Under the pieces are notes generated by a model that was not told the DNA's origin, made no database searches, and saw only the letters and a list, made by a program, of their open reading frames with translations. The translations under genes and the position numbers were made by a program. Shown in pieces: positions 32,278 to 56,316 of a stretch of 64,000 nt of DNA. Numbering within the stretch: the first letter of the stretch is position 1; each line of letters starts with the position of its first letter. Location of the stretch: IMG/VR virus record IMGVR_UViG_3300035698_016797, positions 64,001-128,000 of that record. One strand, written 5' to 3'. This stretch comes from a virus.

Positions 32278-32984
32278 GCTCTCTGTTTGAGTATCTTATA
32301 AATTGTGTTTTTAACACTTGATCTATTGACAGGCTGTAACTGGTTTAGGAAGTCCTTTCTGGTTACAGACCTGTCATAGCTTTTTGCCAGAGCGGCAATT
32401 CCAGACACAAATGCAGCAGAAACACTGTGACCACTCATTTCTTTTTCATTCCCAAACGGCCATGCAGAAGTGAGAGTGTGTGGTGCCACTAGGTTGTAAT
32501 ATATATCGGTTTGCTCAAACGATGCAACTGCTATCACGAATGGATATATGGATGGATATGTTCCATTAGAAGACGCACTAACAACTATGGTCCCGTTATG
32601 ATCCAATCTCTCTAGCATTTCTTTAATCTCTGGATCTTCAATAGTGTAGGCTAAGCTTAAGTTTATAACGTCTGGTTGTAATTTTAACGCCCACTCTATT
32701 CCATTACGTAACCATTCAACCCTTCCGCTACTAGTCTGAGAAACGTGTGCAATATTAAGAGTACACTCCTGTGCCAACTGACATATGGTTCCAGCAACGT
32801 GAGTACAGTGACTCTCTGCATAAAACTCTCTTCCAGGAACAAACCTCTTAACGATTCCAACGTTTTGTCTTATCATGGGATGTGCGGTATCTATTGCGGA
32901 GTCACATATTAGAACAGAAGAGTCTCTCCCTTTGGAATCTATCCATTCTATTGGAACCGACTTTAAACTATACTCCTGGTGCAT
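32274..32984 (-). CDS. Subtilisin-like (S8) serine protease
   Basis: ICDSAID (Asp), SHCTHVAGTI (His), VINLSL, SGHSVSAAFVSGIAAL (Ser). Start at 32984 preferred over 33071. Confidence 0.85.
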   Translation of the reverse strand: MHQEYSLKSVPIEWIDSKGRDSSVLICDSAIDTAHPMIRQNVGIVKRFVPGREFYAESHCTHVAGTICQLAQECTLNIAHVSQTSSGRVEWLRNGIEWALKLQPDVINLSLAYTIEDPEIKEMLERLDHNGTIVVSASSNGTYPSIYPFVIAVASFEQTDIYYNLVAPHTLTSAWPFGNEKEMSGHSVSAAFVSGIAALAKSYDRSVTRKDFLNQLQPVNRSSVKNTIYKILKQRA

Positions 32985-34284
32985 TTTGATCTGATCCTTC
33001 AAAATTATCCTCCACCACAAATTGAGCATCAGTAACCCACACCTCATGTCTTCCTCCAAAGTTATCCTCAAGGATTACTAGAGCCTTTCCTAACACTTCT
33101 GCCCCTAGACACTGTTCTACCCAATTGCCGTCCTCAGACAAGCCTGCTGCAATATTAAAGCTTACTGGTTGTCCATGTAGTCCTGTTGGTAGATCCCATT
33201 CATCAGTAGTGGAATAACAATTTGCAGATGCTGGGTCATTAAGGTATGGAATGTCTCCTCCTCCGCCAGACATTTCAGAATCGTCATAAAACTCTCCGCT
33301 TGGATCTACAGTGTTATATCTAAGCTCTCCACTAGGATTTTTGGTTAGAAATTCGTGATAATAATTTCCAGGAGAACCAACATTTCCATCATCATCACTG
33401 AATGGTGATTGAATTACGCTACTATAAAGATCTCTGTATGGAATTTGTACATTGACTTCAAACCCATCTCCAAAATCTTCATCATCTACGTCTCTGTCTT
33501 CGTGATATTGCCATCTTTCCCAGTCCGAATGTATCACAGTTTGATATTCAATTGTTGGATAGATGTAATATTTATCTGCATATCCATATCTTCTTGCGAT
33601 GTTGTCTTCAACTGGACCATCACTTGATTCATAATGATAATCCTCTCTTCCCGCTGCATACTTACGTGGTATTGTCCATTCACAATTGGGAGGAAACGCA
33701 TCAGGAGACCAGTTCCAAGTACTGACTCCGCTTGGGTCATTAGCAGCCCTTAAGGCGTGATCTCTTATCATCTCAATATCATCTTGCCAATATTCTATTG
33801 GAAGGGTTCTCCCAAGATTTACCCAATAGAAGAAGTTGTCCTTTGTTTCTCTGTACGGTCCATGTGTGTGCATTTCTCTACTTGCATCATATTTTATCCC
33901 AGTTTTTCCAATAACACTGATTTGATCGTCATTATTTTCTGAACTATCCCACGGCTGTATATATATACGTCTCCAAAATTCACGGATGTAGAAAAACCAT
34001 TTTGGTGTTCCTATAATTTTCATGTTGTCAGGAATATTTGAATCAAATTCTTTGACTCTTTCAGACCATGTGTCTTCAAGTTTGAACCTGTAGTTTTGGA
34101 CACCCTTGTACGCCTGTCCACCACTTGAACTAGTAGGATCATGTCCAAGCATAAAGAAATGAACATGTCCTCTGTGTTTATAGGGATTACTTTGCCATCC
34201 AGAAGAGTATGTATACGTTCTAAAAATCCACTGATCGTGAAAAATATAATACAGCGGGAAAAACCTTAATCCTTGTCCTATCAT
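32968..34284 (-). CDS. Putative virion/tail-associated protein
   Basis: 438 aa, Trp/Tyr/Asp-rich, in the tail operon; three PSG motifs. Confidence 0.55.
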   Translation of the reverse strand: MIGQGLRFFPLYYIFHDQWIFRTYTYSSGWQSNPYKHRGHVHFFMLGHDPTSSSGGQAYKGVQNYRFKLEDTWSERVKEFDSNIPDNMKIIGTPKWFFYIREFWRRIYIQPWDSSENNDDQISVIGKTGIKYDASREMHTHGPYRETKDNFFYWVNLGRTLPIEYWQDDIEMIRDHALRAANDPSGVSTWNWSPDAFPPNCEWTIPRKYAAGREDYHYESSDGPVEDNIARRYGYADKYYIYPTIEYQTVIHSDWERWQYHEDRDVDDEDFGDGFEVNVQIPYRDLYSSVIQSPFSDDDGNVGSPGNYYHEFLTKNPSGELRYNTVDPSGEFYDDSEMSGGGGDIPYLNDPASANCYSTTDEWDLPTGLHGQPVSFNIAAGLSEDGNWVEQCLGAEVLGKALVILEDNFGGRHEVWVTDAQFVVEDNFEGSDQNAPGV

Positions 34285-34293
34285 AATAATCTC

Positions 34294-34722
34294 CTATGTT
34301 GTTGGTGGAGGGATTGGTGCTGGCAAATTTGTAGATACGTATAAGTGCGATACATAGTTTGGTTTTAGCAGGTGATCAACGTTCCTCATTAATCCAATGA
34401 GGTGAAACTCTTTAATGTGGTCAGGCTCATTACTCGGGGCACCAAGATATGAGGATATTCCTTCGTATCTTGGTTCTACGACCTTGCTGAAATTCCAGAA
34501 TGGATGTGGTTGTATCCACATTGTCATTGCAGAACTAGATGCATTTCCATCTGCAAGGAGTGGTGGGCTTGGACTTCCGGCATCAACATCTATAGCTACT
34601 ACCTTGTGAAATCTCACAAACTGCATATCTTCTCCACTAATGCTTGCATATGGAGATACTCCCATAATCCTTCCGGTATATGTAATGTCTCCTTGTGCCA
34701 TTTTACAGCTCCTCGTATCCAT
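34294..34722 (-). CDS. Hypothetical protein (tail operon)
   Basis: 142 aa, overlaps the end of the 1751-aa gene; Pro-rich C-terminus. Confidence 0.55.
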   Translation of the reverse strand: MDTRSCKMAQGDITYTGRIMGVSPYASISGEDMQFVRFHKVVAIDVDAGSPSPPLLADGNASSSAMTMWIQPHPFWNFSKVVEPRYEGISSYLGAPSNEPDHIKEFHLIGLMRNVDHLLKPNYVSHLYVSTNLPAPIPPPTT

Positions 34723-37700
34723 CTCCGAACTTTAAGTACTTTATTTCCTCGTGATACAAAAAGTTTGATGGACTCATCTCTCCATCGTAAGTTTCTGATT
34801 CACTAGGTGTCATCCACGACCCTCTTACAAATATATTCTTAGAGGTATCATCGTTGCGAAACTCTATCATAATTTGTACGTCTGCTTCTGCCGATACATT
34901 TTGAAGTTCACTTGGAACATATGTAAGTGGAAGTTCTATTGATTTTGCATTCCCAAATTTGCTTGATTCCACATTGTTTATGTCTCCAGAGGGATTCCAC
35001 CAAGAAGAATTGCGATCCCACACGTTTACCCACGTCCTATCCTCAAGTGTTGCTGTTTTCACCAGAACATTTCCACTATTACTATCATTGTAGTACATTC
35101 TTTTTACATATGTACCATAATACAAATCCTCAACTACGCATGGATTCATAGTATTTGCAGTATCTATTTCAACCTGTTCATCTGTCCAGATTTCTCCATC
35201 TATGGACGTTTGACTGTAGATTTTACTACCACCAGCAACATATCTTGTATAGTACATTTGATAACCACTTGGGGTCATTATAGCATATGGAGTGTTTAAT
35301 ACGTCAGAAGATTCTATGACGGGACTTCCTCCATTCTCTGCTGTGAAATATGTCCCATCCTCAGAGGTGGAATAGAAAATTCCGCTTGGACTAGTAGAGT
35401 TACAATACCACATGTGATATGAACTTCCATCATATACTACAGAAGGACTGTACACTCCGTTTCCAATGTTTGTCTCAAGTATGTCAGACCAAGCATCTCC
35501 ATCTAATGATTGTGTGTATGCAATACGGTTTTGAGATCCATTGTATACGGTAAGCCACATTTTGAAAATACCACCGGAATACATCACAAAAGGTGTATAT
35601 GCAGAGGCATATCCAGTTTCGCTTTCCAGTGTTGTTACTGCATCTTTTGGAAACGCCTGTTCATATTCCCCAAAATTCTCAGGAGTTTTTCCTCTTGCGT
35701 GTAGTATAACGTTTTCATTAAAAGTATTAGGTTTTGAATACCACATGTAATATTGGTGTTCTTCTGTGATTGCAACAACAGGACGCGATCTATCTATTCC
35801 ATATGGAACCCAAATGGTTGGGTTTTCTATCTCGTGATCACTGTGGGTAACAGGTCTATCTGTTGGGAATGTCACACTTTCAGATGTTGCCCAAACTGGA
35901 GTCTTATCATTGAGAGAGTACCATATGTTATAAAGAGAAGCCTCTTGTAACGACTCGTCTGCATACATGGTGTAATCAATATCTATTTCAGACAATGATG
36001 GGTAGACATCAATGGAGGTAATTAATGGCCTAGGCTCTTCTAGTGGAGCAATACTCCATGTGTTATAAGCCCTGGTTCTCCATTGATAGGTGGTATTGAA
36101 CTCTGCAACTCCAGAAGGTAATGTATCTGTCATTGTAGGGTATGTGTTGTTGATAAAAAAGTCCTCTCTATCCCCTGGCATATCATCCTTGTCAAGGATA
36201 TACGTACACATAACTGACTCTTGAGCCTGTATTGTTGTTTCTGTAGATCCCAAAAAACTCTCGTCGTTATTTGCTGTAAACCCTTCATCCCATGGCTGTC
36301 CTTCTCCGTCTCCAAAGCCTTCCCACTGTTTGTCAAAGTCTTGCATAGACAAATCAACTTCTCCGTCTGGAGGATTCATGCTTTCCCTATTTGGTCCGCC
36401 AACAATTCTGTCACCATCGCTGGTAAATAAATAATCTCTCAATGGCAACCCACTCTGGGAACTGAACGCAGAGGTAAAATCTAATTGAAATTGATGATAA
36501 ACTTCATATCTTTCATCGTACGAGACTTGATAGTCATCGTTGGCGTCAAAAGCATCGTCTCCATAAGGCATACTTTCCACCCTAAATCTAAATATTCCAT
36601 TGGCAGTAAGGTTCCCTATGTATCCATTGTTATAGTATCCCTGATCAATAAGGTCTTTTCTTATATCCTTTTCTGCCTCATCTCTTACATTCCTCCAATA
36701 AGGAATTTCAACATTGCGCATTCCATCTATTAGTTCACGCTTCTCTGCAACAACTTCATCCCTACTAACTCCTGGAACTATTTCCTTTTCCCACCATGCG
36801 GTTATTCCTACAAAATCATCTGGAACACCGCTTGCATTTGGAGGATCATAGAAATTATAGATACCGGAAGGAGATGGTTTAATCATCATTTCATCAATTT
36901 CTTTTTCAAGTCTGTCGATCTCTCCAGAAAGGTGAAGAGGTGGGTCCATTTTTTCAAGAGAGTCTGTTTCTTCATCATAAACATATTCTTGTATGTGTCC
37001 GGTCATCCTTCTCAGTTCCAGTTCCGCCTTGTTAAGCACTGGATTATGACGCTTGTTCCAGTTAAAAATTGGAGCAGTCAAACCATTCAAAAGTTTAGAT
37101 GGACACACCTCCATGCGAATACGATATTTATCTCCCGGCGTCAAATCTTCTGTTGCAATAAGCCAATTCACAGTGTGCTCGTTTGACCCTTCAACAGAGG
37201 ACAGGCTGTATCTTTCCCCGGTAACATTCCCATCGTTAATTTGTGTAAACGTTTCTCCATCGGTCGAATACCATAAATTTGTGACATGATAGTCGTCTCC
37301 TTGAGAATCATCAAGCCTAAAATTGATAACCAGAGTCTTGCTCCATGGCTCATAAGATGTGGAAGTTATGTTTGCAGGGTTTGACGCATGTCTATCCACA
37401 AAAAACTTGTTACTATATACCCACGTAGAGAATGTTCGAGAAACGCTATCGTATTGACGTATGCGCAGTCGGTAGTCATATCCCTCTTCTAACAGTTGTT
37501 TGTTTATGATGTCCCAGTATGCGTGCCAACGATTTGGTTGCACTAATTTAGCGTCTGCCTCTGATACATATTCAGAATCTTCAGAATTTACATCGTAATA
37601 ATCAGTGTGTTCTGTGTCGCTCAGATATTTTGACACCTGCAAGTGAATCATTGATGTATCACTGACCGTTGCCTGCCAATGTAGTGTATTATAGGCATCC

Positions 37701-39958
37701 CACCCAGACTGTAGGTAAATTATTCTCAAAGGCTCAAGAGGATTGATGGTAACAAAGTTCCCATACAGAGCAAAGTTTCCTTTTTCCCATCTAAACAGCG
37801 GTGTTGGTCTTTTAAGGTGCCCACTACTTTCTGCTGGAGAATATCCTACAACATAATCTTCTTTACCTTCAAACATGGTTCCAACAACAGGAATATAGTC
37901 TCTTGATCTTATGAAGTTGGCATGAATATTTGAGTTTACAATAAAATCATGTGCAGGAGGGTTATAATCAGAGGTTGATTTCTTAGCCATGTTGACTTCT
38001 GCATTCAAAAAAGGATATACACCGCTGGACAATGCTTTTGGAGCATCCAACTGAAAAGTTGTTCTTTGAAAATTCTCATATTCCGGTAATGGCTTTGGGA
38101 AAATCGTGTCAGCCTTTACTGGACTTCCAAAGATAAATTGATATCCACGCTCAAATCTTGGAGTGTGTGCTCTAAATCCAGCGTAGAAGTTGTTTGTTAA
38201 TGGGTAAATCCAATCTTCAATTGGCTTATAATCAGACGTTGCATATGTGTATATTTGGTAAGGGTCAGTTCTTTCACTAGAAAAACGACTGCCACTACAG
38301 GCAACGCATGGAGTTCTTTCGTACAATCCAGATGCAACCTGAACCAAACCAGAGACTTCCCATCCTTGTCCATCACATGTGGTGCAGTGTTTTCTGTCTG
38401 CTAATGCTTTGAATCTGAACCTAAGATGCCCAAATCTTGTTCCAGCTTTTGCAAAATCAACATCCGTAGCCTCGATGTGCCATCCATCAGGGCCATAATA
38501 GTCAATTCTTTTGGCCATAGGAGGATCTTCTGCATCAAAATCTTGAAACGTTAATTCTCCTGGAGAATGACTCCACCAGTCTCCGGCGTCCCATCCTACA
38601 GGGATTCCCCACTCGTCAAACTCTTGAGTTAAAGGACTGATGATTGCGTCTGCATTGTTATTAGGGGACATTTCCAAACCATATGTATATGTAAGGTGGA
38701 TAGGAGATGAGGAGTGACCATAAGATGGTCCCCTATCTATGGCTCCATCTTTATCTCTCAATGCACTGGTGAGAAGCCCTTCGCTGTAATGTTTCCACCC
38801 TATAATCTCGTTTATATCAACCTTATATACTCCAGAATAATCTGTAGCAAAAGGTCTAAGTTCACAGCCTACTGGCATCTGTTCCTCTGATAGAGGTGAC
38901 TCTACATATTTGGCAACCAATCCATAAATTGGAAACTCTATATCAAAAGATCCAATTCCTCCAGAAGATCCTCCAATCGTAGAGTTGTCCATCGAGAATG
39001 GTCCATAAAAGACTTCAAGGCCGGGTCCAATAGAGTCGTACGGAGTAAAATGTATAGAATAATCATCAGACTCAACAAGCTGTTCGTCTCTACCACTTCT
39101 CCAAACTATGGTCCTTTGTTCTCCCTGTATAACCCTCAACAAGGGGTTAAGAAGGCTCATTTTTGTACTTGTTGAACCGGTATTTCCACCAGTATAATTT
39201 GCGTGAATATATACATCTTCACCATCAAGGTCTGTAACCGTAAATGTTATGTAGACATCTCCATACACATTACCTGTGACATATACTTCGTCAATAGTTA
39301 TTGATGGCGGAAAGTTTTGGTAATTAACAAAACCATTTACACGAGTCCAATTTCCATAATCATAACCATCATATGCTCTCACCTTCCAAAAGTATGAGAT
39401 CCCAGAATTAACAAAGACGTTTGTTTTTGTGTTTGGACTTGAATAATTTTGTGGAATTTCAAGATCGTATACTTCATCAAAGGGATCTACGAATGTTGGA
39501 TCAGTTGAAACCAAAACTTCATAGATAATAGACTGACCACTGTTTGGATCTGCTGCATTTTTCCATTGAAGATATGCAGTGTCTGCGTTGTGAAGCTCTT
39601 CCGCAATGGGATCATAAACAAAATATTGAATACCAGATGAATATTCAAAAGTTTCCCACCAACTACCGTTTTCTGAAATTGCAATCTCAACAGACAATAA
39701 ACCCTGGAAATTAGTTCCCATTGGAACACCAAGTGGGTATTGAAAGAATTCGTCAGAAGAAACTTTCGTTCCAGACTGATACAATCCAGTTTGCCCAGTC
39801 TCTTCGCTTGTGATACGGATAGAGAAACGCGCTTGCGTAACATCTTCCGGTACAGTCCACGAAATGATTGGGGTTGAGCTAGAAGTAGCCGTTGGACAAG
39901 CTTTTGAAAGCTCCAATGAAGGACCAACGGCAATGTTAAGATCTAATACCTGTGCCAT
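34703..39958 (-). CDS. Giant multidomain tail/baseplate protein (FN3/Ig repeats, Zn finger, C-terminal GH-like beta-propeller)
   Basis: FN3 pattern LQWKNAAD...YEVLVSTD...YFWKVRAYD; Ig modules; CTTCDGQG; repeated P-x-V...Y-x-M-[WY]-[YL] blades. Confidence 0.7.
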   Translation of the reverse strand: MAQVLDLNIAVGPSLELSKACPTATSSSTPIISWTVPEDVTQARFSIRITSEETGQTGLYQSGTKVSSDEFFQYPLGVPMGTNFQGLLSVEIAISENGSWWETFEYSSGIQYFVYDPIAEELHNADTAYLQWKNAADPNSGQSIIYEVLVSTDPTFVDPFDEVYDLEIPQNYSSPNTKTNVFVNSGISYFWKVRAYDGYDYGNWTRVNGFVNYQNFPPSITIDEVYVTGNVYGDVYITFTVTDLDGEDVYIHANYTGGNTGSTSTKMSLLNPLLRVIQGEQRTIVWRSGRDEQLVESDDYSIHFTPYDSIGPGLEVFYGPFSMDNSTIGGSSGGIGSFDIEFPIYGLVAKYVESPLSEEQMPVGCELRPFATDYSGVYKVDINEIIGWKHYSEGLLTSALRDKDGAIDRGPSYGHSSSPIHLTYTYGLEMSPNNNADAIISPLTQEFDEWGIPVGWDAGDWWSHSPGELTFQDFDAEDPPMAKRIDYYGPDGWHIEATDVDFAKAGTRFGHLRFRFKALADRKHCTTCDGQGWEVSGLVQVASGLYERTPCVACSGSRFSSERTDPYQIYTYATSDYKPIEDWIYPLTNNFYAGFRAHTPRFERGYQFIFGSPVKADTIFPKPLPEYENFQRTTFQLDAPKALSSGVYPFLNAEVNMAKKSTSDYNPPAHDFIVNSNIHANFIRSRDYIPVVGTMFEGKEDYVVGYSPAESSGHLKRPTPLFRWEKGNFALYGNFVTINPLEPLRIIYLQSGWDAYNTLHWQATVSDTSMIHLQVSKYLSDTEHTDYYDVNSEDSEYVSEADAKLVQPNRWHAYWDIINKQLLEEGYDYRLRIRQYDSVSRTFSTWVYSNKFFVDRHASNPANITSTSYEPWSKTLVINFRLDDSQGDDYHVTNLWYSTDGETFTQINDGNVTGERYSLSSVEGSNEHTVNWLIATEDLTPGDKYRIRMEVCPSKLLNGLTAPIFNWNKRHNPVLNKAELELRRMTGHIQEYVYDEETDSLEKMDPPLHLSGEIDRLEKEIDEMMIKPSPSGIYNFYDPPNASGVPDDFVGITAWWEKEIVPGVSRDEVVAEKRELIDGMRNVEIPYWRNVRDEAEKDIRKDLIDQGYYNNGYIGNLTANGIFRFRVESMPYGDDAFDANDDYQVSYDERYEVYHQFQLDFTSAFSSQSGLPLRDYLFTSDGDRIVGGPNRESMNPPDGEVDLSMQDFDKQWEGFGDGEGQPWDEGFTANNDESFLGSTETTIQAQESVMCTYILDKDDMPGDREDFFINNTYPTMTDTLPSGVAEFNTTYQWRTRAYNTWSIAPLEEPRPLITSIDVYPSLSEIDIDYTMYADESLQEASLYNIWYSLNDKTPVWATSESVTFPTDRPVTHSDHEIENPTIWVPYGIDRSRPVVAITEEHQYYMWYSKPNTFNENVILHARGKTPENFGEYEQAFPKDAVTTLESETGYASAYTPFVMYSGGIFKMWLTVYNGSQNRIAYTQSLDGDAWSDILETNIGNGVYSPSVVYDGSSYHMWYCNSTSPSGIFYSTSEDGTYFTAENGGSPVIESSDVLNTPYAIMTPSGYQMYYTRYVAGGSKIYSQTSIDGEIWTDEQVEIDTANTMNPCVVEDLYYGTYVKRMYYNDSNSGNVLVKTATLEDRTWVNVWDRNSSWWNPSGDINNVESSKFGNAKSIELPLTYVPSELQNVSAEADVQIMIEFRNDDTSKNIFVRGSWMTPSESETYDGEMSPSNFLYHEEIKYLKFGDGYEEL

Positions 39959-39969
39959 TTTGGTTCCTC

Positions 39970-42753: not shown

Positions 42754-42771
42754 AGCCTTATCTCCTTATCC

Positions 42772-46800: not shown

Positions 46801-49800
46801 TCTTGACCTAGACCATCCCATTCAAGGGCAGATGCCCACTCTTGAGTTGGCCCATTAAATCCAAAAGATGAATCGTGGTGATGAGCAATTGTTCCCATGA
46901 TGTCATCAAACATACTGGAACGAGCAGATGTGTATGGGTGATATCCCTCACTTCCTCCTGCTCCATCTGCGTATTCGCTATCATATCCATCAATCCACTT
47001 TGGTTTTGTCTTTGAATCTTTTGTCAAATCAAAAGTTCCATGTAACCATATGTCCTCATGGTCAGTCATGAACGGATGATAATGTCTATTTCTTTTTCCC
47101 CCAGACCAAACTACTCCTATAGGAGGCTTGCTTGGTTCTGTTGCTGGAGATATTATTGCGTAAGCCTTTACAACTTCCTTGTCCAGTGGAAGATATCCAT
47201 GTAAAAAGAAAAATGCGTTAGATTCTATTTTGTCTCCAGTGTATCCCCAAGCTCCACCGTGGTCTTCTTGAAAAGAATCATCAAAGTGGGCATCTGAAGC
47301 ACCTCCTCCACGAGAAATTCCTCCAATATACTGATTAATACGCCACCAACATGTTCCAGTAGGAACGTACTCTCTAATCATGATAGGAGGAAAGCCACCG
47401 TCCCAATATTGTTGATATTGATCACACCCAAGACTGTTTGCCGCAATAATCTGAACCGGTAAAGATCCAGGCTTCATATGATAGTCACGATCAACAGATG
47501 GATTATATCTATTTTTGTGTCCTTGTTGTTTTGAAGGAAAGTAATCTCCATGTGCATGTTTTCCAACGTAATAACCATACATGGGTTCAACTTTATTGCG
47601 CAAATTTTTCAACTGATCAATTGTAACCATGTCGAGACCAGGGATACTAGTCCCATATGGGGCTATAACATCGTCTGAATATGTACCACCATCCAGCCTC
47701 TCATTAGAGTATCCTGTCATTCCACTTGAGTTTTCGTCAGGCCCACGATCCAACATATCAGAAGATTGAACACCCTCGTCGCGAGAGTAAATTTGTGTAG
47801 TGTCTGCAATGGTTTCATTTTTGTCCGCAATATCCTCGTCTGTTGGAATAAACCCAGGAAATGAATATCCCTCAAACCTTCCGCTTGGTTCCGGCAAACC
47901 TTCCTTCAGTAAATTTCCACTTGGATCTGCATATTTGAACACGGAATATTCTGACTCAGAGTTTGCAGAGTTTGTAGGACCGAGAGAATACCCTCCACCA
48001 CCACTGTTTAATGCCCCAAGCTTCCCAACCACCTGTCTTACGGTAGAACTGTTTACTATGGTTGGATTTTTCCAATACATACCATCCTTGTTAATAGTCT
48101 GTCCTGGCAATCCCCAAATTGTGACATTTCCTCTAGCTTTGACGTTTGGAAAGTGAGACCAATTCCCACCAGAACCAAGCTCTTCTCCGCACGATTTACA
48201 TGTTGGAAAATTTTCAGACTCCCAATCTGTAACTATTTGTGTTATATTTACATACCCAGATGCATCCATAAGTCCAGATGGATTTGGATTCCCACCCATA
48301 TCATATCCTACATCATCCCAGGAGCAGCTTCCACATCTTAAAAAACTTCTTTCTGTTGGAAGCTGTCCGGTAGGAGGATTTCTTGGGGCGATACTTCTTC
48401 CGGTATCTCCGTCTTCAAGGTTTGAGAAGAGTGCCAAATCTGCACGACTATCACTAGAGTAGATATATGCACTACGTATTGTTGCACCTTTAGAATGAGT
48501 TGGAGAAATAATGCTATTCCCAACTATACCATAAATTGGAGTGGCATCATTGTATTCGTCAGGTTTGTTTGACATTCTTGGACCTTCCGGTACTGTTGGG
48601 AACACTCCAGAAGCAAATTGTTCCAAGTTTCCCAAAGCCCTTCCGTCGTCAATAAATTCTCCAGACTTATCAATCCAATATCCCATGTAAAAGCCTTTGT
48701 CTGATTTGGAGTGCTTTTCCTCTCCCCCTTTGTTGCCTCTGGTAAAGTCTTCAATACCACCACCTTCTGCCTTTACGGCCAAAACCTCTTCTCCCATCTT
48801 TGAGCGATCTTTATATTCTGGATGTCTTCCTCCAAAGAATTCACGATCATTTGTAACCTGACATATAAATTCTGAGGGAGATTTGTAGTCATCATAAAGT
48901 TTGACCAACCAAGGAACTCCACTTGGATAACATGATGGAGAATTCACGGTTCCGTCATTGGCCATGTATATAGCACCACTTCCGCTGTCATATTGTTCAA
49001 TGTGGGCAAAGAGGTTTGCATCATAATGTCCACTTGCAGACCATTTTGACCTGTCATAGTAAAAATAGACGTGTAAATTGCTAGATGGTACATCTGGAAT
49101 AGTTTTTACATAGCAGTTAAGGGCACCGCTTGGCGCTACAGCCGCAAAGATACCGCTAGGACTTGTCCCGGACACCGTTGCGGTCATAGTGTCACCTACT
49201 ATCCTATACTCCTCTAAGGCACTGCTACAGGCTTCTAGTCCACCTTGTCTGAATGGGGTAAGAACATTATCATAAAGAAGCTTGTAGTTGAAGTCATATT
49301 CTTTTGCTCTGCGAGGAATTTCTGAATATGGACAGTTGTGTGTATAGTACCTACAATACTCTTCTCCTCCAACTCCTGAGAAGGTTCCTTCTTTTAACCC
49401 TCCTATCATACGAATTCCATATGCTGGGTTACATTTTTCTGGCTTGTAACATGGCATCACATTTCTATTGAAGCGTGCAGAACTCATCAAGTTTCTGTCT
49501 CCAAAGAATTGACTATCAACTCCACCAAAATTTTCAGTATCCTTGGTATCAAATGAAAATCTTCCAGTGCCTCTTTTGATTTGCTTGTAGTCGTCGTACA
49601 GAAGATTTCTTCCTTCATCGTTATATATCTCTCTGCCCATTGCTGGAATTTTTCTATAGGTATATTCGACTCTCCAGCGCATGTCTGTATCTCCCATCTG
49701 TCTTGGGAGTGTTGTTGGATTGTTTAAGGCATAAAGAGATCCGAGTCCCATTCCACCCCACATTAAACTTCCACCACCTAGAGGAGTCATTGATCCAGAA

Positions 49801-51134
49801 AATATAGCCTTAGAGTTTGTTAAATTACGACCACCTCCTGCTGCATCATAGTTGTCAATAGTTGTCCACATTGACGCGAACTCATCTGGAGTCTGTGCCT
49901 CTGCCTCATACAGTGCTATTTCTTGTGCTCCTGCGGCATGATAGTGAGGACATGTTCCACTATACCCAGAGTCCTGCATACAGTATGTTGGGTTTACGAC
50001 ATTTTCAGGTTCATTAGATCCAAGTTCAGAAGCCAACGTGCACCCTATGGTTCCGGCAGCACTCCCTCTAAAAAACGAACATCCTTTATGAACAATTTCG
50101 GAGTCTGAGAAGTTTGTTCCTATTATTTTTAGTCTTAACTTTCCAGGAGACCCCTTGTATGTAGGGGTTGGTTGTCTTATTGCTGTTCCAACAGTTGATG
50201 CTGAATACTGTTCAAAACGCGTTCCAGAAGCAGATGCCATTGTGAGTGCACTAATTCTACTGATTAAGATATAGTTCAAACCTTTTGACCAAGCTGCCCC
50301 ATGGGTATAGTCAATGATTCCATCAATGGTGGCATAGATCGGAGACCCAACTGTGGCTATGTATGTGGGAATAACTTGTGTGCTGTAAATGTTGGCTGGT
50401 TCGAAATATTCTTTTGGAGCCATCATATTTACAGTGTCGGTTGGAATGTTAGCGTGCTCCCCACCCTTGGTAGACTCAGCCTCTACGCGATTTCTATAGA
50501 GTCTTACTCCTTTATTGCGTCCTGGATATTTAAACTGAAAACGCTTTTTATAGGCGCTTGTGCGAGTGAACGTACTGAATCCACTGGCTGATGCCCTGTT
50601 GTCTTTCCAGTCATTAGCTTCTAAAAACTCTTGTGTAAAAATGTCACCAGTTTCTATGTTCTGATAATTCCACAGAGTTTCGTTCCAAGAGTGCGTTGTT
50701 CCACCAATTTTTTTCAGATCGAACTTTCCAGATGGTTGGATTACAGTTAGGCTTGATGGATGAAATAATTCTGGCTCTACCGTTTGATCATCACTTTCTC
50801 TGGTTCCCTTATAGGTGTATGTTGTAAACAGCCATGGAGAATCAACCTCTGGAAACGCATACAGGTGTGCATTTTTATCAGAGACTGCTGCAAAGCGAAC
50901 GTCTGGTTGAAACTTGTCCATCCAGTTTGTCCACTTTTGATATCCAGAGGGGCTTGCGCCGTCTCTAGTCATGTTGATGTACTTTCCACCATAAAAGTTT
51001 TCTCTGGCCTGACCATATTGACCACGAACCATATAAGACCTATCCGCAGGCGGAAGATCAAATTGAAAACCCGTACGATCTGGGTAATTGCTAAAAAAAT
51101 CGTTTGGCATTGCCTTTATTCCTATGCTTCCCAA
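43890..51134 (-). CDS. Giant (2414 aa) tail-tip/baseplate protein with Cys clusters
   Basis: Uninterrupted ORF downstream of the hub gene; Gly/Ser/Trp-rich; several CxxC pairs; 21 [AP]SG motifs. Confidence 0.65.
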   Translation of the reverse strand: MGSIGIKAMPNDFFSNYPDRTGFQFDLPPADRSYMVRGQYGQARENFYGGKYINMTRDGASPSGYQKWTNWMDKFQPDVRFAAVSDKNAHLYAFPEVDSPWLFTTYTYKGTRESDDQTVEPELFHPSSLTVIQPSGKFDLKKIGGTTHSWNETLWNYQNIETGDIFTQEFLEANDWKDNRASASGFSTFTRTSAYKKRFQFKYPGRNKGVRLYRNRVEAESTKGGEHANIPTDTVNMMAPKEYFEPANIYSTQVIPTYIATVGSPIYATIDGIIDYTHGAAWSKGLNYILISRISALTMASASGTRFEQYSASTVGTAIRQPTPTYKGSPGKLRLKIIGTNFSDSEIVHKGCSFFRGSAAGTIGCTLASELGSNEPENVVNPTYCMQDSGYSGTCPHYHAAGAQEIALYEAEAQTPDEFASMWTTIDNYDAAGGGRNLTNSKAIFSGSMTPLGGGSLMWGGMGLGSLYALNNPTTLPRQMGDTDMRWRVEYTYRKIPAMGREIYNDEGRNLLYDDYKQIKRGTGRFSFDTKDTENFGGVDSQFFGDRNLMSSARFNRNVMPCYKPEKCNPAYGIRMIGGLKEGTFSGVGGEEYCRYYTHNCPYSEIPRRAKEYDFNYKLLYDNVLTPFRQGGLEACSSALEEYRIVGDTMTATVSGTSPSGIFAAVAPSGALNCYVKTIPDVPSSNLHVYFYYDRSKWSASGHYDANLFAHIEQYDSGSGAIYMANDGTVNSPSCYPSGVPWLVKLYDDYKSPSEFICQVTNDREFFGGRHPEYKDRSKMGEEVLAVKAEGGGIEDFTRGNKGGEEKHSKSDKGFYMGYWIDKSGEFIDDGRALGNLEQFASGVFPTVPEGPRMSNKPDEYNDATPIYGIVGNSIISPTHSKGATIRSAYIYSSDSRADLALFSNLEDGDTGRSIAPRNPPTGQLPTERSFLRCGSCSWDDVGYDMGGNPNPSGLMDASGYVNITQIVTDWESENFPTCKSCGEELGSGGNWSHFPNVKARGNVTIWGLPGQTINKDGMYWKNPTIVNSSTVRQVVGKLGALNSGGGGYSLGPTNSANSESEYSVFKYADPSGNLLKEGLPEPSGRFEGYSFPGFIPTDEDIADKNETIADTTQIYSRDEGVQSSDMLDRGPDENSSGMTGYSNERLDGGTYSDDVIAPYGTSIPGLDMVTIDQLKNLRNKVEPMYGYYVGKHAHGDYFPSKQQGHKNRYNPSVDRDYHMKPGSLPVQIIAANSLGCDQYQQYWDGGFPPIMIREYVPTGTCWWRINQYIGGISRGGGASDAHFDDSFQEDHGGAWGYTGDKIESNAFFFLHGYLPLDKEVVKAYAIISPATEPSKPPIGVVWSGGKRNRHYHPFMTDHEDIWLHGTFDLTKDSKTKPKWIDGYDSEYADGAGGSEGYHPYTSARSSMFDDIMGTIAHHHDSSFGFNGPTQEWASALEWDGLGQDMVQKYTEDQLWKDFTFQEFSDKIDRDKMKLTFKCGDLDVDGVGYDFTMFSQRLLSLYLNNWVQPITNFQDLSGMNGKMWYQRTGPVVEEKVSDTSWAEGGEVIVQSGDGFKLKTSSTSSTSPSSYSSGGSGNNNGGWATRVLDITDVVKERYDKRIPRAFTTSAGISYDELHNQNRSDRTNPAFFDGDSDPSGAINYRYWNSTHGAWLNDPWHHPKLAADNNLPTLVYGDEYNLSTAASGRISAVSDWYTPPSASGDPENSDYYTYHPKQIITATDTAENSGTPSASGYWYVLKQTSEVPNFQIDLIPLPIENIRRDWRRHPGKWNCANAVCGASECYVGHRNMTVSEFSQYVQGAGKSATAPSITSTICSVCGSDLTTLPATGAIYEGGDGIETVTYEEPFDDDVFIKAISVNPTPSILDDYKHGFDIDVLGDEESRWKTIVSTSWSESGNEWTWTKYDTSGVKVAETGSELPTFFKGYWVNGGDSTSAGAAISGYHFVSPRARYVRYRPKPRRFKRYMVGSSGLPVGSLVSTSGQYEMPSGYEVEDDDWTSATFEMTTASGNFTSPAFTDTVVANTETTFDLAGGPTDTSGYVEWRVWKYFYLSSCAKLEVYGYESKPSYMKVTDSASVFSTPYVIGMDAFAMPDFPSRILSVNAGVYDTVHLPMTESSSRTSSDFYWNTASEVDPNTNLTYFAVTGGRYFFDPAKNEIVLPRYFKNPDGTAGGNIWDLNNDLDPNDFKVMTIPGFVQVEYFTGVGMPINIDVTAVGGGPSYQLEKDSVNFIAGYEPAGTSTPDGIPTSFGQLPSMGQSVKLPTNSNNKYNLNWTVTNNDPLYGDFGMSHIKGNELPAGGWTEEAITNQYFGGTYQTSPSGSYITGMVSGEVTFYGLPQSIISGNFTVYAAAKTKHEYWADGEHIVKWDRTGGLKYTGFSVGVEVGAIASGRQGICFGVPTVVVYLKERDSSIEPNV

Positions 51135-51532
51135 GGTTGCTGTGGTACTGCTGTACCAGGATGATATACTGCAAATGCAAACCCTCCGTGTGCATTATCT
51201 CTGTGATCGTGCAATCCCATTGCACCAGGAATAACTCCTCCATCATAATCACTTGTATGTCTATGTATATTGTATCCTTCCGTAGCAACCTCTGGTGCCT
51301 TAATCCTTAACCCTGCTTCGTGAACTCTCGCCTGATACTGATTATAATACAAAACTGCCTGCACATCGTTCCATGCAATTGGAGTTTGAGACCCATCATG
51401 AAAGTGAATTGCGGCAGAATCCCACCAAAAACGATCTTCAGCTTCTTGATCTGTCATCATATTCATAATCTGCCTCATCTTTGTGAGTTTAGCAGCAAGC
51501 TGAGATGGTGTATATTTTACGCTTCTAGCCAT
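51122..51532 (-). CDS. Small tail-tip protein with HxH motifs (spike-like)
   Basis: IHRHT and LHDHR in the C-terminal half; directly after the hub gene. Confidence 0.5.
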   Translation of the reverse strand: MARSVKYTPSQLAAKLTKMRQIMNMMTDQEAEDRFWWDSAAIHFHDGSQTPIAWNDVQAVLYYNQYQARVHEAGLRIKAPEVATEGYNIHRHTSDYDGGVIPGAMGLHDHRDNAHGGFAFAVYHPGTAVPQQPWEA

Positions 51533-51543
51533 GGGTATTCTCC

Positions 51544-54500
51544 TTATCCAATGATGGATGCTCCGTCGCCTCGCTTATTCATGTCTGGATCGTTATAGAT
51601 ATTACCCTGCAAACTTGTAGAATATGCAGTTTTATGAGTTCCAAATACCCATTGGTTCAACAATGTGTGAATATAGCGTTCGCTATCCTTGTCACTTTCC
51701 TTCTTTTGTCCAAGACGAAATTCTTCTGTACTCAACTCAAGAGTTGTAGTAAATGGTCCAGAAAAATTGTGAACCATCCTAACAATTGAAGAGTATACTC
51801 CACTTGCCAATGCGATATACCCAAGCCCATTACCAAGGTCATAGTTTGATCCTCTAACGGTAATGTTTCCAGTAACCTGAATGTCGTTCCTTTTTTCCAG
51901 TTCACGAACGGCATGTTTGATTAGGCGATATCTGTCGTCTCGCTGAACCCATTGAATCTTCTTTGGAAATGCATCTGCCTTACCAATATCAGTAGTGTCT
52001 AGTCCTGACCCCTCCTGCTCTCTATATTTTAGCTGTTCAATTGTTTGTATTGCCCCAAGAGAATAATAGTATCCATTTGCCTGATATTCTGCCAATAATC
52101 CAGATGGATCTGCCCATTTATAAGTATCACGCTCTGGTATGGGTAAATTTCTACTGTCCCAAGGGTGTATTTGCCACTTATATTCATTCATTATGCCACT
52201 TTTTATTACAGGTCTAGTCGAAACATTAAATTCGGTTCCGGTTGCATACTTCTTATATACCTCAAAAACTGGTCTTCCGTCCCAAATACTTGATTGTGCC
52301 TTGTATGTGATTCCTTCAACTACAATTTCTTTTGGATTGGTTCCTAGCCTTTGGCCAGAATCATATCCAGAAAGGTTAACTGGAAATCTGTCGTAGTATT
52401 TTTTTCTGTGGAAATAGCATGTTATCCAAGCTCTTGGAGGTCTCCAGTACGACAGGGTTCCACTGTCAGAAGATGTATCATAAACAGTTGAGAATCCCCT
52501 GTCATTATGTTTACATATGTGACTAATTTTTTCATTACTAATTTTGAGATCCTGAGTTTTTATAACCTTCATAGCCTTGCTACATACAATCGCCTGACGA
52601 TGGCTAAATACAACATCTCCTTTGACGTGGTCAATAGAAGCCTGTACCCCTGGCTGTACAGAAGAGCTGGTTAAATATCTAATCTTTAAGTTGTCTGGGA
52701 AAATTCTCTTTTGGTCATCCGTTCCTCCACCGGTACTGCTCAATTCTCCAGCTAATGGATGCGGAATTACTCCAACAGCCTTCCATGTACTGCCGGAATC
52801 CGATTCGCTTGCAGCTTGGCTAACTTCTATCTGGACTTGTGCAGGATATGAATATGTTAACTCTCTAACCATTTCTTCCCACGTTCTATTTCCTATGCTC
52901 TTTGCTGACGCTCCTTCTATCTTTACTTTAGACGGAGGTAAGTCAATCAGATTAGAAAGAATATTTCGAATCTTAAAACGTGGCTCTTGTCCAACTCCTC
53001 TACATGCAGGGCACATATTTATCCAAGGAACTGGATGTGTTGATGGTTCATATTCTTTGGCCGTAGTGTTCCATTCAAAGACATAATCAAATGGTGAAAG
53101 TTGTGAAACGCCGGAAGCTGCCGTTCCATCACTATCACGAGATTGTCCGAACCATTCGTCTTCTTTTCCTGCCCATCCAGAAGCAGATGCTACAGCACCA
53201 GTTCCTCCACAATGAGAACATGCTCCAGGCCATGGCATCCAAGCCTCATATCTCAATCCTAAAATACTAGCATATTTTTTTTCTCTGGAATTCGCAAGAA
53301 ACGGATCATATGGAAAGATGTCGTCCAGCTTTGTGTATCCCTGTTTTTCAGATTCTCCTTTGTATGAATCTGTTGCTGTTGCTATCAGCTCTGCCATCCC
53401 TCCCCACTCTGTAGTGCTTGGATATGTCATTGTGTGTTTAATATTGACGGTTGCAGCATCGTAACCACTCGTAACGTCCCATCCTGGATACAGAGGGCAA
53501 CCAACAATACAATATCTTCCACTAGCATTCGCCAATGCATATGTAGGCATGGAGTATCTGTACCCATCCCAATTGTAGTTGTTTAAATAGTAAACACTAC
53601 TGGCTGTTGGAGTCATTGTCATATCTTTATGGTCTGGATGTATGTATGAGTGTCCACTATACCATTCAATCGGAGATCCAAACAGGCGGAATACGGTTGC
53701 AAGCTCGCTTGTTTTTTTGACAGAGTTGTCCTTAATTACATTGACTGACCCTGAATGTTCACCAGTAGTATCTAAGACCAAATCGTAAATGTAATCTTTG
53801 TTAGGATTGGCAGAGTCCGCCGTGGCATAGTGTAAAGGTCTCAAATCTCCTTGATTAGAATTTGATAGTGAAACTTTTGTGATTACCAAACCGTCCATTC
53901 CTGGATCATACACAATTTTGTATGTTCCGGCAGAAGATATTGTCTGATAAATAGCTTCGGCTACAGAGGTGTTTTCAAACCTTAGCATTTTTGGAACAAA
54001 GCTTGCCAAATCTGAGGTGTTAGAAAAGTCAATAGAGGAATATGTAAACCAAGTAAGAGGAGTATATTCGGCATCAAATTCGAAGATTTGCTTTGCTGCA
54101 CTGGCAAAAATATCCTCAATAATTTCTGCAACTGTCATGTTTTCCTCTTTTACGACCAAGTTCTTTTCGTCCCAGTTCATTTCTCTTGGATCATCATAAG
54201 ATTCGTTATAAATTTTAGTTACAGTTTCATCGTTAAGTCTTGATTTCATGCATTTACATGTAACTGTGTACTGAGAACCCTTCCCACCTTTTTGATGTGC
54301 AACATTAGATACAATCCCCTGAAAGATTATGCTCATGTCAACATCTCCCCATGAGCTTGCGACGCCTCCGGCACTTGTGGCTTTTGCAACAACTTCTTGC
54401 CCAATACTTGGAACAGTAAGACTTCCTTTGGCTTCATACGTAGTAGTATTACTGTCTGTAATGGTAAATGTCATAGTTCCTGGGACTGCATCTGATGTGA

Positions 54501-54645
54501 CCGTTATAGAACTAACGTTACAGTCTAATTCTTCTCCTCCAGCTGGGGAAGCTCCAAGAACAAGAGTTCCAGAGACAAAGCTTTGAACTCTAATCAAGTA
54601 TGGTGTTAGCGGTGATTGTACTTCCGTATTTGCATCAACTGTCAT
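51544..54645 (-). CDS. Baseplate hub / tail-tip protein
   Basis: N-terminal IIFQGIVSNV...YTVTCKCMKSRL pattern typical of hub (gp27/Tal-like) proteins; third gene after the tape measure. Confidence 0.65.
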   Translation of the reverse strand: MTVDANTEVQSPLTPYLIRVQSFVSGTLVLGASPAGGEELDCNVSSITVTSDAVPGTMTFTITDSNTTTYEAKGSLTVPSIGQEVVAKATSAGGVASSWGDVDMSIIFQGIVSNVAHQKGGKGSQYTVTCKCMKSRLNDETVTKIYNESYDDPREMNWDEKNLVVKEENMTVAEIIEDIFASAAKQIFEFDAEYTPLTWFTYSSIDFSNTSDLASFVPKMLRFENTSVAEAIYQTISSAGTYKIVYDPGMDGLVITKVSLSNSNQGDLRPLHYATADSANPNKDYIYDLVLDTTGEHSGSVNVIKDNSVKKTSELATVFRLFGSPIEWYSGHSYIHPDHKDMTMTPTASSVYYLNNYNWDGYRYSMPTYALANASGRYCIVGCPLYPGWDVTSGYDAATVNIKHTMTYPSTTEWGGMAELIATATDSYKGESEKQGYTKLDDIFPYDPFLANSREKKYASILGLRYEAWMPWPGACSHCGGTGAVASASGWAGKEDEWFGQSRDSDGTAASGVSQLSPFDYVFEWNTTAKEYEPSTHPVPWINMCPACRGVGQEPRFKIRNILSNLIDLPPSKVKIEGASAKSIGNRTWEEMVRELTYSYPAQVQIEVSQAASESDSGSTWKAVGVIPHPLAGELSSTGGGTDDQKRIFPDNLKIRYLTSSSVQPGVQASIDHVKGDVVFSHRQAIVCSKAMKVIKTQDLKISNEKISHICKHNDRGFSTVYDTSSDSGTLSYWRPPRAWITCYFHRKKYYDRFPVNLSGYDSGQRLGTNPKEIVVEGITYKAQSSIWDGRPVFEVYKKYATGTEFNVSTRPVIKSGIMNEYKWQIHPWDSRNLPIPERDTYKWADPSGLLAEYQANGYYYSLGAIQTIEQLKYREQEGSGLDTTDIGKADAFPKKIQWVQRDDRYRLIKHAVRELEKRNDIQVTGNITVRGSNYDLGNGLGYIALASGVYSSIVRMVHNFSGPFTTTLELSTEEFRLGQKKESDKDSERYIHTLLNQWVFGTHKTAYSTSLQGNIYNDPDMNKRGDGASIIG

Positions 54646-54657
54646 AACCTTTTCCTC

Positions 54658-55557
54658 TTAATATTGGGCAGTAAACGATACTGCCGTTCCTTTTCCGTTT
54701 CTTCCGGGAGACACACCTACGCTCGATCCATCAATGAACAGGTCTAAAAATAATTCATCCCCAGAATCTAAACTATCTACAACTTTTATATCAACCTTTC
54801 CGTCCGTAAATCCATTGGATATATCCACCAATGCTGCGTTGCCCAAGCTCCCAGAGGGAGGAGATACACAACCCGCTCCTGGCCCAGCCGTTCCCTGTAC
54901 GGCGAAACTTCTTCTGTTCCACCCTGAAAAGTAAAGCTCAGAACCATTTGCAAACGTATATGTTTGTTCTGCTATCCTTGGTATCTCTGCTGTGATTGTA
55001 ACAACTCCTCCATCAAGAATGTAGTCATTTGCATTGCTGCTGATTTTAACCTTTTTAGATGGTACTTCTGCTTCTATTAAAGTTGCACTATACTTAATAA
55101 GATTAGGCCAAAGAGTCTCTTCTATTGTAAGAGATTGAGGTCTCGCATAAACTCTTCCGCCGCCATTATTCAATAAACCACTTGGAAGAGGAACACACCT
55201 GTTGTCCTCAAGGGTTCCCCAACTTGACATTGCAGTGGGAGCTACACCTTCTGATGCTGTTGAAAGGGCACTATATAGGGCTTCATATGCAGATTTTAAA
55301 GAGTTGTATTTAGATTCATCTGTTCCAGTTCCTCCTGATGGAAGAATCTCAGCGTTGATTGTAAACGTTCCATTGATAGTATAGACAGCCTTAGATCTTC
55401 CAACATTGGCTTCGTTATAAACAAACCCAACCTGCATACTTGCAAGATAATATCCCCACAATGGATCATAAACCTCGCTTCTCACATCTGGAGTAACAGG
55501 AGGCGTTGGGTTTATGTCCAGAGATCGTATGTGTCCATAATGTATTGGTAAAGACAT
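54658..55557 (-). CDS. Putative distal tail / tail-tip protein
   Basis: 299 aa, beta-rich; second gene after the tape measure. Confidence 0.5.
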   Translation of the reverse strand: MSLPIHYGHIRSLDINPTPPVTPDVRSEVYDPLWGYYLASMQVGFVYNEANVGRSKAVYTINGTFTINAEILPSGGTGTDESKYNSLKSAYEALYSALSTASEGVAPTAMSSWGTLEDNRCVPLPSGLLNNGGGRVYARPQSLTIEETLWPNLIKYSATLIEAEVPSKKVKISSNANDYILDGGVVTITAEIPRIAEQTYTFANGSELYFSGWNRRSFAVQGTAGPGAGCVSPPSGSLGNAALVDISNGFTDGKVDIKVVDSLDSGDELFLDLFIDGSSVGVSPGRNGKGTAVSFTAQY

Positions 55558-55566
55558 GTTTTATCC

Positions 55567-56316
55567 TTATAGTATCTGTGGAGGTGCAATCATTTCCGCT
55601 GTCATGTGTGCAATTTTATTTTCAACATCCCATCTCACAGAACCTTTGGTTATCATACACTCGTGAATATCAGTTTCTGTAGGCTCCAAGGCTTCTGGTA
55701 TTGCCTCTGAAAGGTCAAACGTTAAAGGATACCCAGAAGGAGATGTGGCGCTATCAGAAGAAAGTCTTTGTTCCAACGTTGAAACCAATCCACTAGGATA
55801 AGCATCATTACTATTGACCACATAGTCTCCTGTAACAGTAACCTTAAGCATGTCGTGTCCCAGTTGTTGCCTTTGCCATCCGTCTACGGAGAATGCCGCG
55901 TCTTGTGCCCTTCTGATTTTAGATGGAGTTATAGAAATCTTTGGGTTCCACAGGGTGTATCCCCACCATCCTATTGATGCAGCTGTACTTCCCGAGTTGT
56001 CGTTGTCAAATTCGAGAGTTACTTTTCCCCAATCTCTCCACACACCTCCGTCATAAGAGATTCCCTTCAGGATCATATTGTTTAAAACTGCGTGTGGAAG
56101 AGTTAGGGTTCCGACTCCAACGTTTGATCCCTTCATCGCATCAAGATCTGCGGCGGTCATTTCTGACGTTTGTAGGGTTCCTGTTACAGAAATTGACATA
56201 GTATTTCTGGCGGAGCCAGAGCCTTCCCATGCAAACTTGTGCTGTATGTAATACATGATACGAGACAACGTGCACGTACCACTATCATTTGTAAAGGACA
56301 TGTTGCTAAGTGCCAT
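55567..56316 (-). CDS. Putative distal tail protein
   Basis: 249 aa, immediately downstream of the tape measure; AAGGA SD. Confidence 0.5.
   Translation of the reverse strand: MALSNMSFTNDSGTCTLSRIMYYIQHKFAWEGSGSARNTMSISVTGTLQTSEMTAADLDAMKGSNVGVGTLTLPHAVLNNMILKGISYDGGVWRDWGKVTLEFDNDNSGSTAASIGWWGYTLWNPKISITPSKIRRAQDAAFSVDGWQRQQLGHDMLKVTVTGDYVVNSNDAYPSGLVSTLEQRLSSDSATSPSGYPLTFDLSEAIPEALEPTETDIHECMITKGSVRWDVENKIAHMTAEMIAPPQIL

Follow-up and report, generated by a model that had tools for sequence, protein, structure and literature searches.

An [A/P]-S-G tripeptide concentrated in the virion proteins of a large phage: a candidate short linear motif and a glycosyltransferase pair that may read it

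The locus and its tripeptide

The DNA considered here is a 64,000-nucleotide stretch (the window; positions 64,001 to 128,000) of IMG/VR record IMGVR_UViG_3300035698_016797, and forms the middle third of one 181,030-bp phage contig with direct terminal repeats. It encodes eight large tail-module proteins in which one tripeptide, a serine preceded by alanine or proline and followed by glycine ([A/P]SG), is strongly over-represented. The same window carries replication genes (Pol III alpha, PHP, DnaB, primase, SSB and RecA), an 11-gene glycan island (10429-21073), an S8 peptidase and the start of a tape-measure-like open reading frame (ORF). No close cultured relative of the phage was found: its best terminase match reaches 28% identity and the tail protein had no match. 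The eight tail-module proteins matched no Pfam or PHROG family in scans that covered about 70 ORFs of the genome. Scans of viral and metagenome contigs with the portal and with an 899-amino-acid (aa) GT2 glycosyltransferase likewise gave no close relatives. Homologous tail modules were nevertheless recovered from twelve other phages (G001-G009, L016, L017 and the P0011 contig; G000 denotes the phage under study), and motif load could be counted in eleven of them, the P0011 contig being without DNA.

All eight genes lie on the minus strand, and each product exceeds the [A/P]SG count expected from its own composition. These are a 438-aa distal tail-module protein (32968-34284; 3 copies versus 0.27 expected), a 1,751-aa tail protein (34703-39958; 7 versus 1.16), a 927-aa central-fibre-like protein (39970-42753; 11 versus 0.74), a 368-aa protein with the highest motif density (42772-43878; 9 versus 0.44), a giant tail protein of 2,414 aa (43890-51134; 21 versus 2.81), and tail proteins of 1,033 aa (51544-54645; 5 versus 0.91), 299 aa (54658-55557; 3 versus 0.49) and 249 aa (55567-56316; 2 versus 0.25). 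Together they hold 61 copies against 7.07 expected, an 8.6-fold excess (Poisson P(>=61 | 7.07) = 1.2e-35), and every per-protein count agrees exactly with the original prediction, which was made from the letters of the window. When the residues of each protein were shuffled 2,000 times, 0-2.3% of the trials attained the observed count, so that the excess survives correction for composition and is not explained by serine and glycine content. When all 8,000 tripeptides are ranked, PSG comes first (34 versus 3.3, P = 4e-23) and ASG second (27 versus 3.8, P = 1e-14); the next in rank (SGV, SPS and SGY) are extensions of [A/P]SG itself. Around the tripeptide the preferred residues are A/T/P at -2, S/A/D at -1, V/Y at +1 and L/Y at +2. 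The 91 virion-module copies are encoded by 47 distinct 9-mers with serine codons of both the AGY and TCN types, which, together with the gain and loss among relatives described below, supports the earlier claim that selection acts on the protein and not through repetition of the DNA. Among those codons TCA encodes 3 of the 91 motif serines, although it accounts for 21% of serines across these proteins; usage of the remaining serine codons is near background.

The original prediction confined the enrichment to tail-tip and baseplate proteins. Its window counts hold, but the confinement proved too narrow, for five more enriched proteins lie outside the window, at genome positions 139973-140707 (244 aa), 144710-145207 (165 aa), 151421-154177 (918 aa), 158041-160569 (842 aa) and 160582-164073 (1,163 aa). 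The rest of the genome contains 18 [A/P]SG versus about 22 expected, and no enrichment was seen in the tape measure, portal, terminase, 899-aa GT2 or any non-virion gene. The non-virion ORFs of the window hold three copies (in a GT9, one GT4 and a 113-aa ORF) rather than the single GT9 copy first reported, a number still at or below expectation. The tape-measure-like ORF provides an internal negative control: it occupies 56327-64000 on the minus strand and runs off the window end (genome 120327-136847), and had been credited with 2 copies in 2525 aa. The complete ORF measures 5,506 aa with 4 copies versus 6.2 expected, so its lack of enrichment stands while its length is corrected. Orthologous tape measures are of similar size (5,587, 5,162 and 4,943 aa). 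At the customary 1.5 angstrom of tail per tape-measure residue, 5,506 aa implies a tail of roughly 0.8 micrometre.

Across 14 enriched virion-module proteins the requirement extends to all three positions. PSG occurs 55 times versus 4.8 expected and ASG 36 times versus 6.0. With the centre exchanged the counts are near expectation or below it (PTG 5/4.0, ATG 6/5.3, PDG 4/3.6, PNG 0/2.5), every other xSG stands at about 1-2-fold, and PSx and ASx are near expectation where x is not glycine. Serine-glycine without A or P before it is at 1.09-fold, the whole excess of the S-G dipeptide thus being owed to [A/P]SG, and the D-G dipeptide is not depleted (1.25-fold). A generic type I or Asx/ST beta-turn, whose centre is interchangeable among Asp, Asn, Ser and Thr, does not describe this pattern. 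Because all of the SG excess is [A/P]SG and D-G is not depleted, neither a generic turn preference nor an avoidance of D-G and N-G suffices to explain it; avoidance of labile Asp-Gly or Asn-Gly was accordingly rejected as a candidate cause. The [ST]GS tripeptides show no excess in G000 (15 versus 16.7 expected).

Structural models place motifs in turns or at loop/strand boundaries. The N-terminal 330 residues of the 927-aa protein are predicted by AlphaFold to form tandem FN3/Ig-like domains (pLDDT 82-92 over residues 1-330); Foldseek searches with the model returned FN3 arrays, T5 pb4 and lambda gpJ, and its confident part resembles siphophage central-fibre arrays. Five of the six motifs in this modelled region (50, 106, 127, 149 and 175) would sit at loop/strand boundaries or hairpin turns. 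In a low-confidence model of the 368-aa protein (pLDDT 46), four close-packed motifs appear in turns before short strands. Motif flanks are less conserved than background positions (identity 0.30 versus 0.37, P = 0.003) and more often gapped (0.088 versus 0.046, P = 1.5e-4), which bears out in part the suggestion that the sites occupy loop-like insertions.

Gain and loss among tail-module relatives

Motif load in the tail module varies widely among the relatives. It reaches 8.6-fold in G000, 7.5-fold in L016, 6.0-fold in L017, 5.3-fold in G003 and 2.8-fold in G001 and G002; it is 2.4-fold in G008, 1.0-1.3-fold in G005, G006, G007 and G009, and 0.5-fold in G004. Within the 2,414-aa family alone the sites number 21 in G000, 22 in both L016 and G003, 3 in G002, 2 in G006 and 1 each in G001 and L017. 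A five-way alignment of this family gives 9 sites common to G000 and its sister L016, with 12 private to G000 and 13 private to L016; new sites often derive from xSG, PxG or xxG, or sit in insertions. In the corresponding alignment of the 1,751-aa family, 1 of 16 motif columns is common to all five sequences. In the 927-aa family, outgroups show no more than xxG even at the three PSG columns that are best conserved, and the orthologues of the 1,033-aa protein in G001 and G002 contain no [A/P]SG. Most sites are lineage-specific gains. The non-enriched relatives favour a different tripeptide, P-D-G.

These alignments also dispose of a reading that the original prediction had itself put forward as a danger, namely that the motifs are conserved beta-turns of one repeated fold. 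Orthologous folds without the motif, sites private to one lineage and the presence of xxG in outgroups rule it out, as does the occurrence of the motif in an unrelated myovirus (see below). Nor does nucleotide composition account for the pattern. GC content is 62% in G003, 41% in G000 and about 29% in G001; the motif persists from about 29% to 65% GC and is therefore not a mutational or host-composition effect. G003 repeats the G000 picture, with ASG and PSG again the top two tripeptides and the same partition between enriched virion proteins and a flat remainder.

Several observations on the relatives stand apart from this pattern. The G002 tape measure (G002:C1:100394-115882), unlike those of the other relatives, contains 12 ASG and 2 PSG versus 5.5 expected, an excess that may be an Ala-rich repeat. 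Outside the window, the 165-aa protein of G000 (genome 144710-145207; L001:16710-17207) is encoded beside the major capsid protein, and the 842-aa lectin-fold protein (genome 158041-160569; L002:11041-13569), which is unique to G000, shares 46% identity with the G001 orthologue of that 165-aa protein; from this resemblance it may be an extended head-decoration paralogue. The S8 subtilase gene (window 32274-33071, minus strand) closes the tail module, with about 100 bases of overlap between it and the 438-aa ORF. The L016, L017 and P0011 contigs keep this gene in the same place, and G001 and G002 have BLAST homologues of it. In public records two of the phage contigs appear as metagenome-assembled genome contigs, P0010 (L017) labelled 'Candidatus Njordarchaeia archaeon' and P0013 (L003) labelled 'Melioribacteraceae bacterium'. 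The bacterial type of the RecA, DnaB, DnaG and Pol III genes speaks for a host among the bacteria and suggests that at least the archaeal label stems from mis-binning.

A GT4 pair, its variable neighbours and an unrelated myovirus

Two adjacent GT4 glycosyltransferases close the glycan island of the window on the minus strand, a 419-aa protein (18489-19748; Pfam Glycos_transf_1 / GT4-conflict), which is a candidate motif-reading or extending enzyme, and a 474-aa protein (19649-21073; Pfam Glycos_transf_1). Orthologues of the former are present in G001, G002, G003, G006 and G014, the last a genome that was found through its GT4 homologues (as were G012 and G013); on the L016 contig a 382-aa GT4 stands beside the GT4-474 orthologue. 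The pair keeps the same order in G001, G002, G003, G006, L016 and G014, and both members retain the E-x7-E signature (GEGW/F...E-A-M) in all orthologues. The presence of the pair could be checked in five enriched genomes (G000, G001, G002, G003 and L016, with L017 outside that check), and all five carry it. The complete outgroups that lack the pair show motif loads of 0.5-, 1.3- and 2.4-fold. In the G003 orthologue of GT4-474 (P0037; G003:C1:38423-40228; L065:18423-20000), an intein of about 164 residues is lodged inside the E-x7-E motif, recognizable by a Hint-domain match (PF13403), an initial Cys and a terminal His-Asn followed by Cys.

The remaining nine genes of the island (10429-18496, minus strand) form a variable glycan cassette found only in G000, with no counterpart in G001 or G002. 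By Pfam they comprise a 184-aa ORF without assigned function, a methyltransferase, a GT8-like protein, a B12-radical SAM enzyme, a DegT aminotransferase, a methyltransferase fusion, a CgeB-like glycosyltransferase, a GT9 and a GT2-like protein. The slot beside the pair (window 10429-18496, compared with L082:11430-17684 and L028:3171-12432) is filled differently among the relatives. L016 has a dehydratase, 2-epimerase and reductase set resembling FnlABC, while in G002 a GDP-mannose 4,6-dehydratase is accompanied by reductases and a CgeB-like transferase. Two methyltransferases occupy the slot in G001 and a radical SAM enzyme does so in G003; in G006 nothing recognizable is there. This turnover resembles the diversification of O-antigen loci, and the possession of non-homologous sugar-nucleotide pathways by different phages fits a surface glycan under diversifying selection.

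Against a background of tight synteny with G001, two islands unique to G000 stand out, the cassette above and a second island outside the window, where a radical SAM enzyme and the orphan 899-aa GT2 are encoded along with two motif-rich proteins of ConA-like lectin fold. No protein of either glycan island contains a membrane segment, as would suit an acceptor that is soluble. Neither island is needed for the trait, because the enriched G003 lacks both. The 899-aa GT2 lies between motif-rich genes and has no counterpart in G001, G002 or G003, which rules it out as the shared reader. It finds only itself among 5.8 billion proteins and has no sequence match in the PDB; atlas feature matches to GT2 and capsule-synthesis proteins offer a lead only. 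The GT9, the DegT aminotransferase and the B12-radical SAM enzyme, being specific to G000, were rejected in the same role. For the GT9, PF01075 is found in G000 and not in G001 or G002, and BLASTP gave no match to it in G003; by these searches it is missing from three enriched relatives and cannot be the shared reader. A phyletic search for genes present in the enriched genomes and absent from G006 gave no plausible reader. It yielded only the portal, whose appearance is an artefact of divergence, along with the 918-aa protein, RecA, a reverse transcriptase, a MazZ-like diphosphohydrolase and one weak JAB-like ORF.

The GT4 family extends well beyond the tail family, with 245 proteins and 334 viral contigs, and six genomes that carry GT4 homologues without the 927-aa family were examined for tripeptide preferences. 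The closest pair, at 38-40% identity and in the same order, is that of G014, a contractile-tailed phage (myovirus) with a tail sheath, a tail fibre/spike and further virion structural proteins. G014 and G000 share 6 of 113 ORFs, namely RecA, two DegT-like genes, a GT9-like fragment and the GT4 pair. In the structural block of G014, [A/P]SG occurs 56 times versus 11.8 expected (P = 2e-20), and in the rest of the genome 7 times versus 6.2. PSG and ASG are again the top two tripeptides, with the same strictness and the same context (PSG-F/Y/V), and the enriched proteins include the tail sheath and tail fibre. In G012 and G013, whose GT4 homologues are 33-34% identical, large proteins favour SGN instead (23/4.3 and 19/3.9) with no fixed preceding residue, over G012:C1:104117-114318 and G013:C1:39444-51850 (L170-L171 and L186-L187). 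Genomes with homologues at 27-29% identity showed no clear tripeptide preference, and the flanks of 80 GT4-homologue loci, mostly non-structural genes, were uninformative on the motif. The glycan cassette of G014 also encodes, beside its GT9-like gene, a collagen-like 2,360-aa protein of about 310 tandem Gly-Tyr-Ser triplets (G014:C1:16264-23346; L199:16264 to L200:3346), which places Ser-Gly at every third residue.

Interpretation of the motif and its possible reader

The best account of these results is that positive selection, differing between lineages, favours [A/P]SG as a short linear motif on outward-facing virion proteins. A motif that is strict, short, placed in turns, confined to virion proteins, gained many times over, independent of GC content and common to unrelated proteins of phages that share a GT4 pair is probably read by a macromolecule, and the GT4 pair is the most economical candidate for that reader. 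The likeliest reading, to which we give about an even chance, is the proposal, built on sequence comparison, that the [A/P]SG serine is the acceptor for a phage-encoded, cytoplasmic O-glycosylation. Under this proposal the soluble GT4 (GT-B) pair would place the first sugar or sugars on serines exposed in turns of virion proteins, whether already folded or still folding. The hypervariable neighbouring cassette would supply unusual nucleotide sugars, its further transferases would elaborate the glycan, and a sugar coat would result on the distal tail and other exposed parts.

Several facts weigh against O-glycosylation by the GT4 pair. G006, sister to G002, keeps an apparently intact pair and shows no motif excess (48 versus 43 genome-wide). 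The GT4-bearing genomes group as a single clade in the phylogeny of the 927-aa family (support 84/96), so that the association within the tail clade could reflect a single event, which leaves G014 as the only independent replicate. The pair is located in the replication module, not among the structural genes, and its matches to solved protein O-GlcNAc transferases span only the generic GT-B core (E about 3e-3). Neither GT4 contains DUF1975 (Pfam, E <= 1e-3), a domain that mediates contact within the pair and with the substrate in the GtfA/GtfB system discussed below, and [A/P]-S-G is unlike any bacterial O-glycosylation sequon known (review PMC12645811). Finally, about 40% of the sites replace a pre-existing turn-glycine context, which points to a real structural contribution.

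This last point, with the placement of the modelled motifs in turns or at loop/strand boundaries, is the strength of a purely structural explanation, in which [A/P]SG is a favoured exposed turn, a Ser-capped ST-turn replacing an Asx-turn P-D-G, and the serine stays unmodified. Selection would then be for virion stability, surface charge or protease resistance, and the glycosyltransferases would serve another purpose. Relatives do carry P-D-G where G000 has P-S-G, and the pair in G006 without motif excess is as expected. We nonetheless consider this explanation unlikely. Turn propensity would also favour Thr, Asp or Asn at the centre and other small residues before it, none of which is enriched, and the D-G frequency given above shows that escape from labile D-G or N-G does not drive the pattern. 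G004, G006 and G009 have identical folds that lack the motif, the tripeptide recurs in the unrelated folds of the myovirus G014 that shares the GT4 pair, and the excess is missing from the non-virion proteins of G000, G003 and G014.

A different reader is an explanation of similarly low probability, whether the serine is phosphorylated, acylated or ADP-ribosylated or the motif is a docking site for a chaperone, a decoration protein or the S8 protease. The strictness and turnover of the motif indicate macromolecular recognition without naming the reader, the tail module ends in a conserved S8 subtilase gene, and G006 uncouples the GT4 pair from the motif. However, a host enzyme would have to be common to hosts spanning about 29-65% GC, and the recognizable enzymes common to G000 and G014 are only the GT4 pair, the DegT-like and GT9-like proteins and RecA. 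It is hardly plausible that one structural protein would be cut at 21 sites, and no kinase or ADP-ribosyltransferase domain was found among the roughly 70 G000 ORFs scanned against Pfam or PHROGs.

DNA is an unlikely acceptor for the sugars, since no thymidylate-synthase-type hydroxymethylase (PF00303) was found in G000, G001 or G002 and no C5 methylase (PF00145) in G000; a search for PF12851 (TET/JBP) gave no match, with the control for PF12851 also silent everywhere. A separate protein of 179 aa (genome 168377-168916, minus strand; L084:877-1416), matching the dATP/dGTP diphosphohydrolase N-terminal domain PF18909 at E = 1e-28, is the MazZ-like enzyme of nucleotide-pool editing mentioned above. 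Its presence in G001, G002 and G003 and not in G006 is a hint that a DNA base may be modified. An origin by chance, from composition or as an artefact of DNA-level repeats is vanishingly improbable: although the enriched proteins are somewhat rich in Ser and Gly, the excess keeps a P of about 1e-35 after correction, concerns the top two of all tripeptides, is spelled by many different 9-mers and is replicated in G003, L016, L017 and G014.

Known systems offer partial parallels for a glycosylation of the [A/P]SG serine. Mycobacteriophages set a precedent, with virion glycosylation by enzymes that the phage itself encodes (Freeman et al. 2023, Cell Host Microbe 31:1216, as related in PMC12582341 and PMC11256854). 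The likeness lies in the phage's own glycosyltransferases, which G000 also encodes according to Pfam, in virion structural proteins as the proposed acceptors and in a cytoplasmic step before or during assembly. The mycobacteriophage glycans reportedly sit in the C-terminal parts of capsid and tail-tube subunits and follow no defined short sequon. The proposed G000 system would differ in its strict tripeptide spread over dozens of loops, mainly of the distal tail, and in its GT4 pair with a hypervariable cassette. In the literature on phage particle glycosylation we found no defined acceptor motif.

Among bacterial systems, the GtfA/GtfB enzymes of serine-rich-repeat adhesins combine a conserved priming pair with variable extra transferases in the cytoplasmic O-glycosylation of serine, these downstream enzymes differing from strain to strain and yielding different glycans (PMC6973325). 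The phage pair is similar in being two adjacent, soluble GT-B/GT4 proteins conserved together while the neighbouring transferases vary, and GT4-419 gives weak matches to the Gtf1/GtfA structures 4pqg and 5e9t. In contrast, both phage GT4s keep E-x7-E, whereas GtfB is a non-catalytic chaperone, and the phage acceptors would be isolated tripeptides in folded beta domains rather than long Ser-rich repeats, with no accessory Sec export. Because DUF1975 is missing and both partners look catalytic, we do not claim membership of the GtfA/B family. The TibC/Aah autotransporter heptosyltransferases, which are cytoplasmic, GT9-like and of GT-B fold, hyper-glycosylate loop serines of a beta-rich surface protein (PMC4358343); the G000 cassette contains a GT9, but one of 303 aa versus about 400 aa for TibC. 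Proteoglycan xylosyltransferase uses an acceptor Ser followed by Gly, with a small residue before it (PMC4598785), which suggests, by analogy only, why a transferase that has to reach a serine in a tight turn might require Gly at +1. That enzyme is a eukaryotic Golgi protein of another family that prefers acidic flanks, and no homologue of it was sought in the phage.

A more tentative extension, possible though short of an even chance, is that [A/P]SG is a true three-residue O-glycosylation sequon read by a portable GT4 pair, such that phages of very different build which acquire the pair evolve it into their exposed loops and swap cassettes in the manner of O-antigen loci. If true, and taken with the SGN preference of G012 and G013, sequon-directed virion coats would be widespread in large environmental phages, each transferase lineage having its own Ser-Gly code. 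Glycosylation of phage particle proteins is known from few cultured phages. A strict tripeptide joined to a transferase pair would make virion glycosylation predictable from sequence and account for the sugar-biosynthesis islands that many large environmental phages carry, and an enzyme together with an acceptor domain would be testable without culturing the phage. Even without glycosylation, the parallel gain of one tripeptide in dozens of loops belonging to unrelated proteins offers an uncommonly clear example of selection on a viral short linear motif. A sugar coat on the tail tip would bear on host recognition, on how stable and sticky virions are outside the host's cells, in the environment, and on the evolution of phage surfaces.

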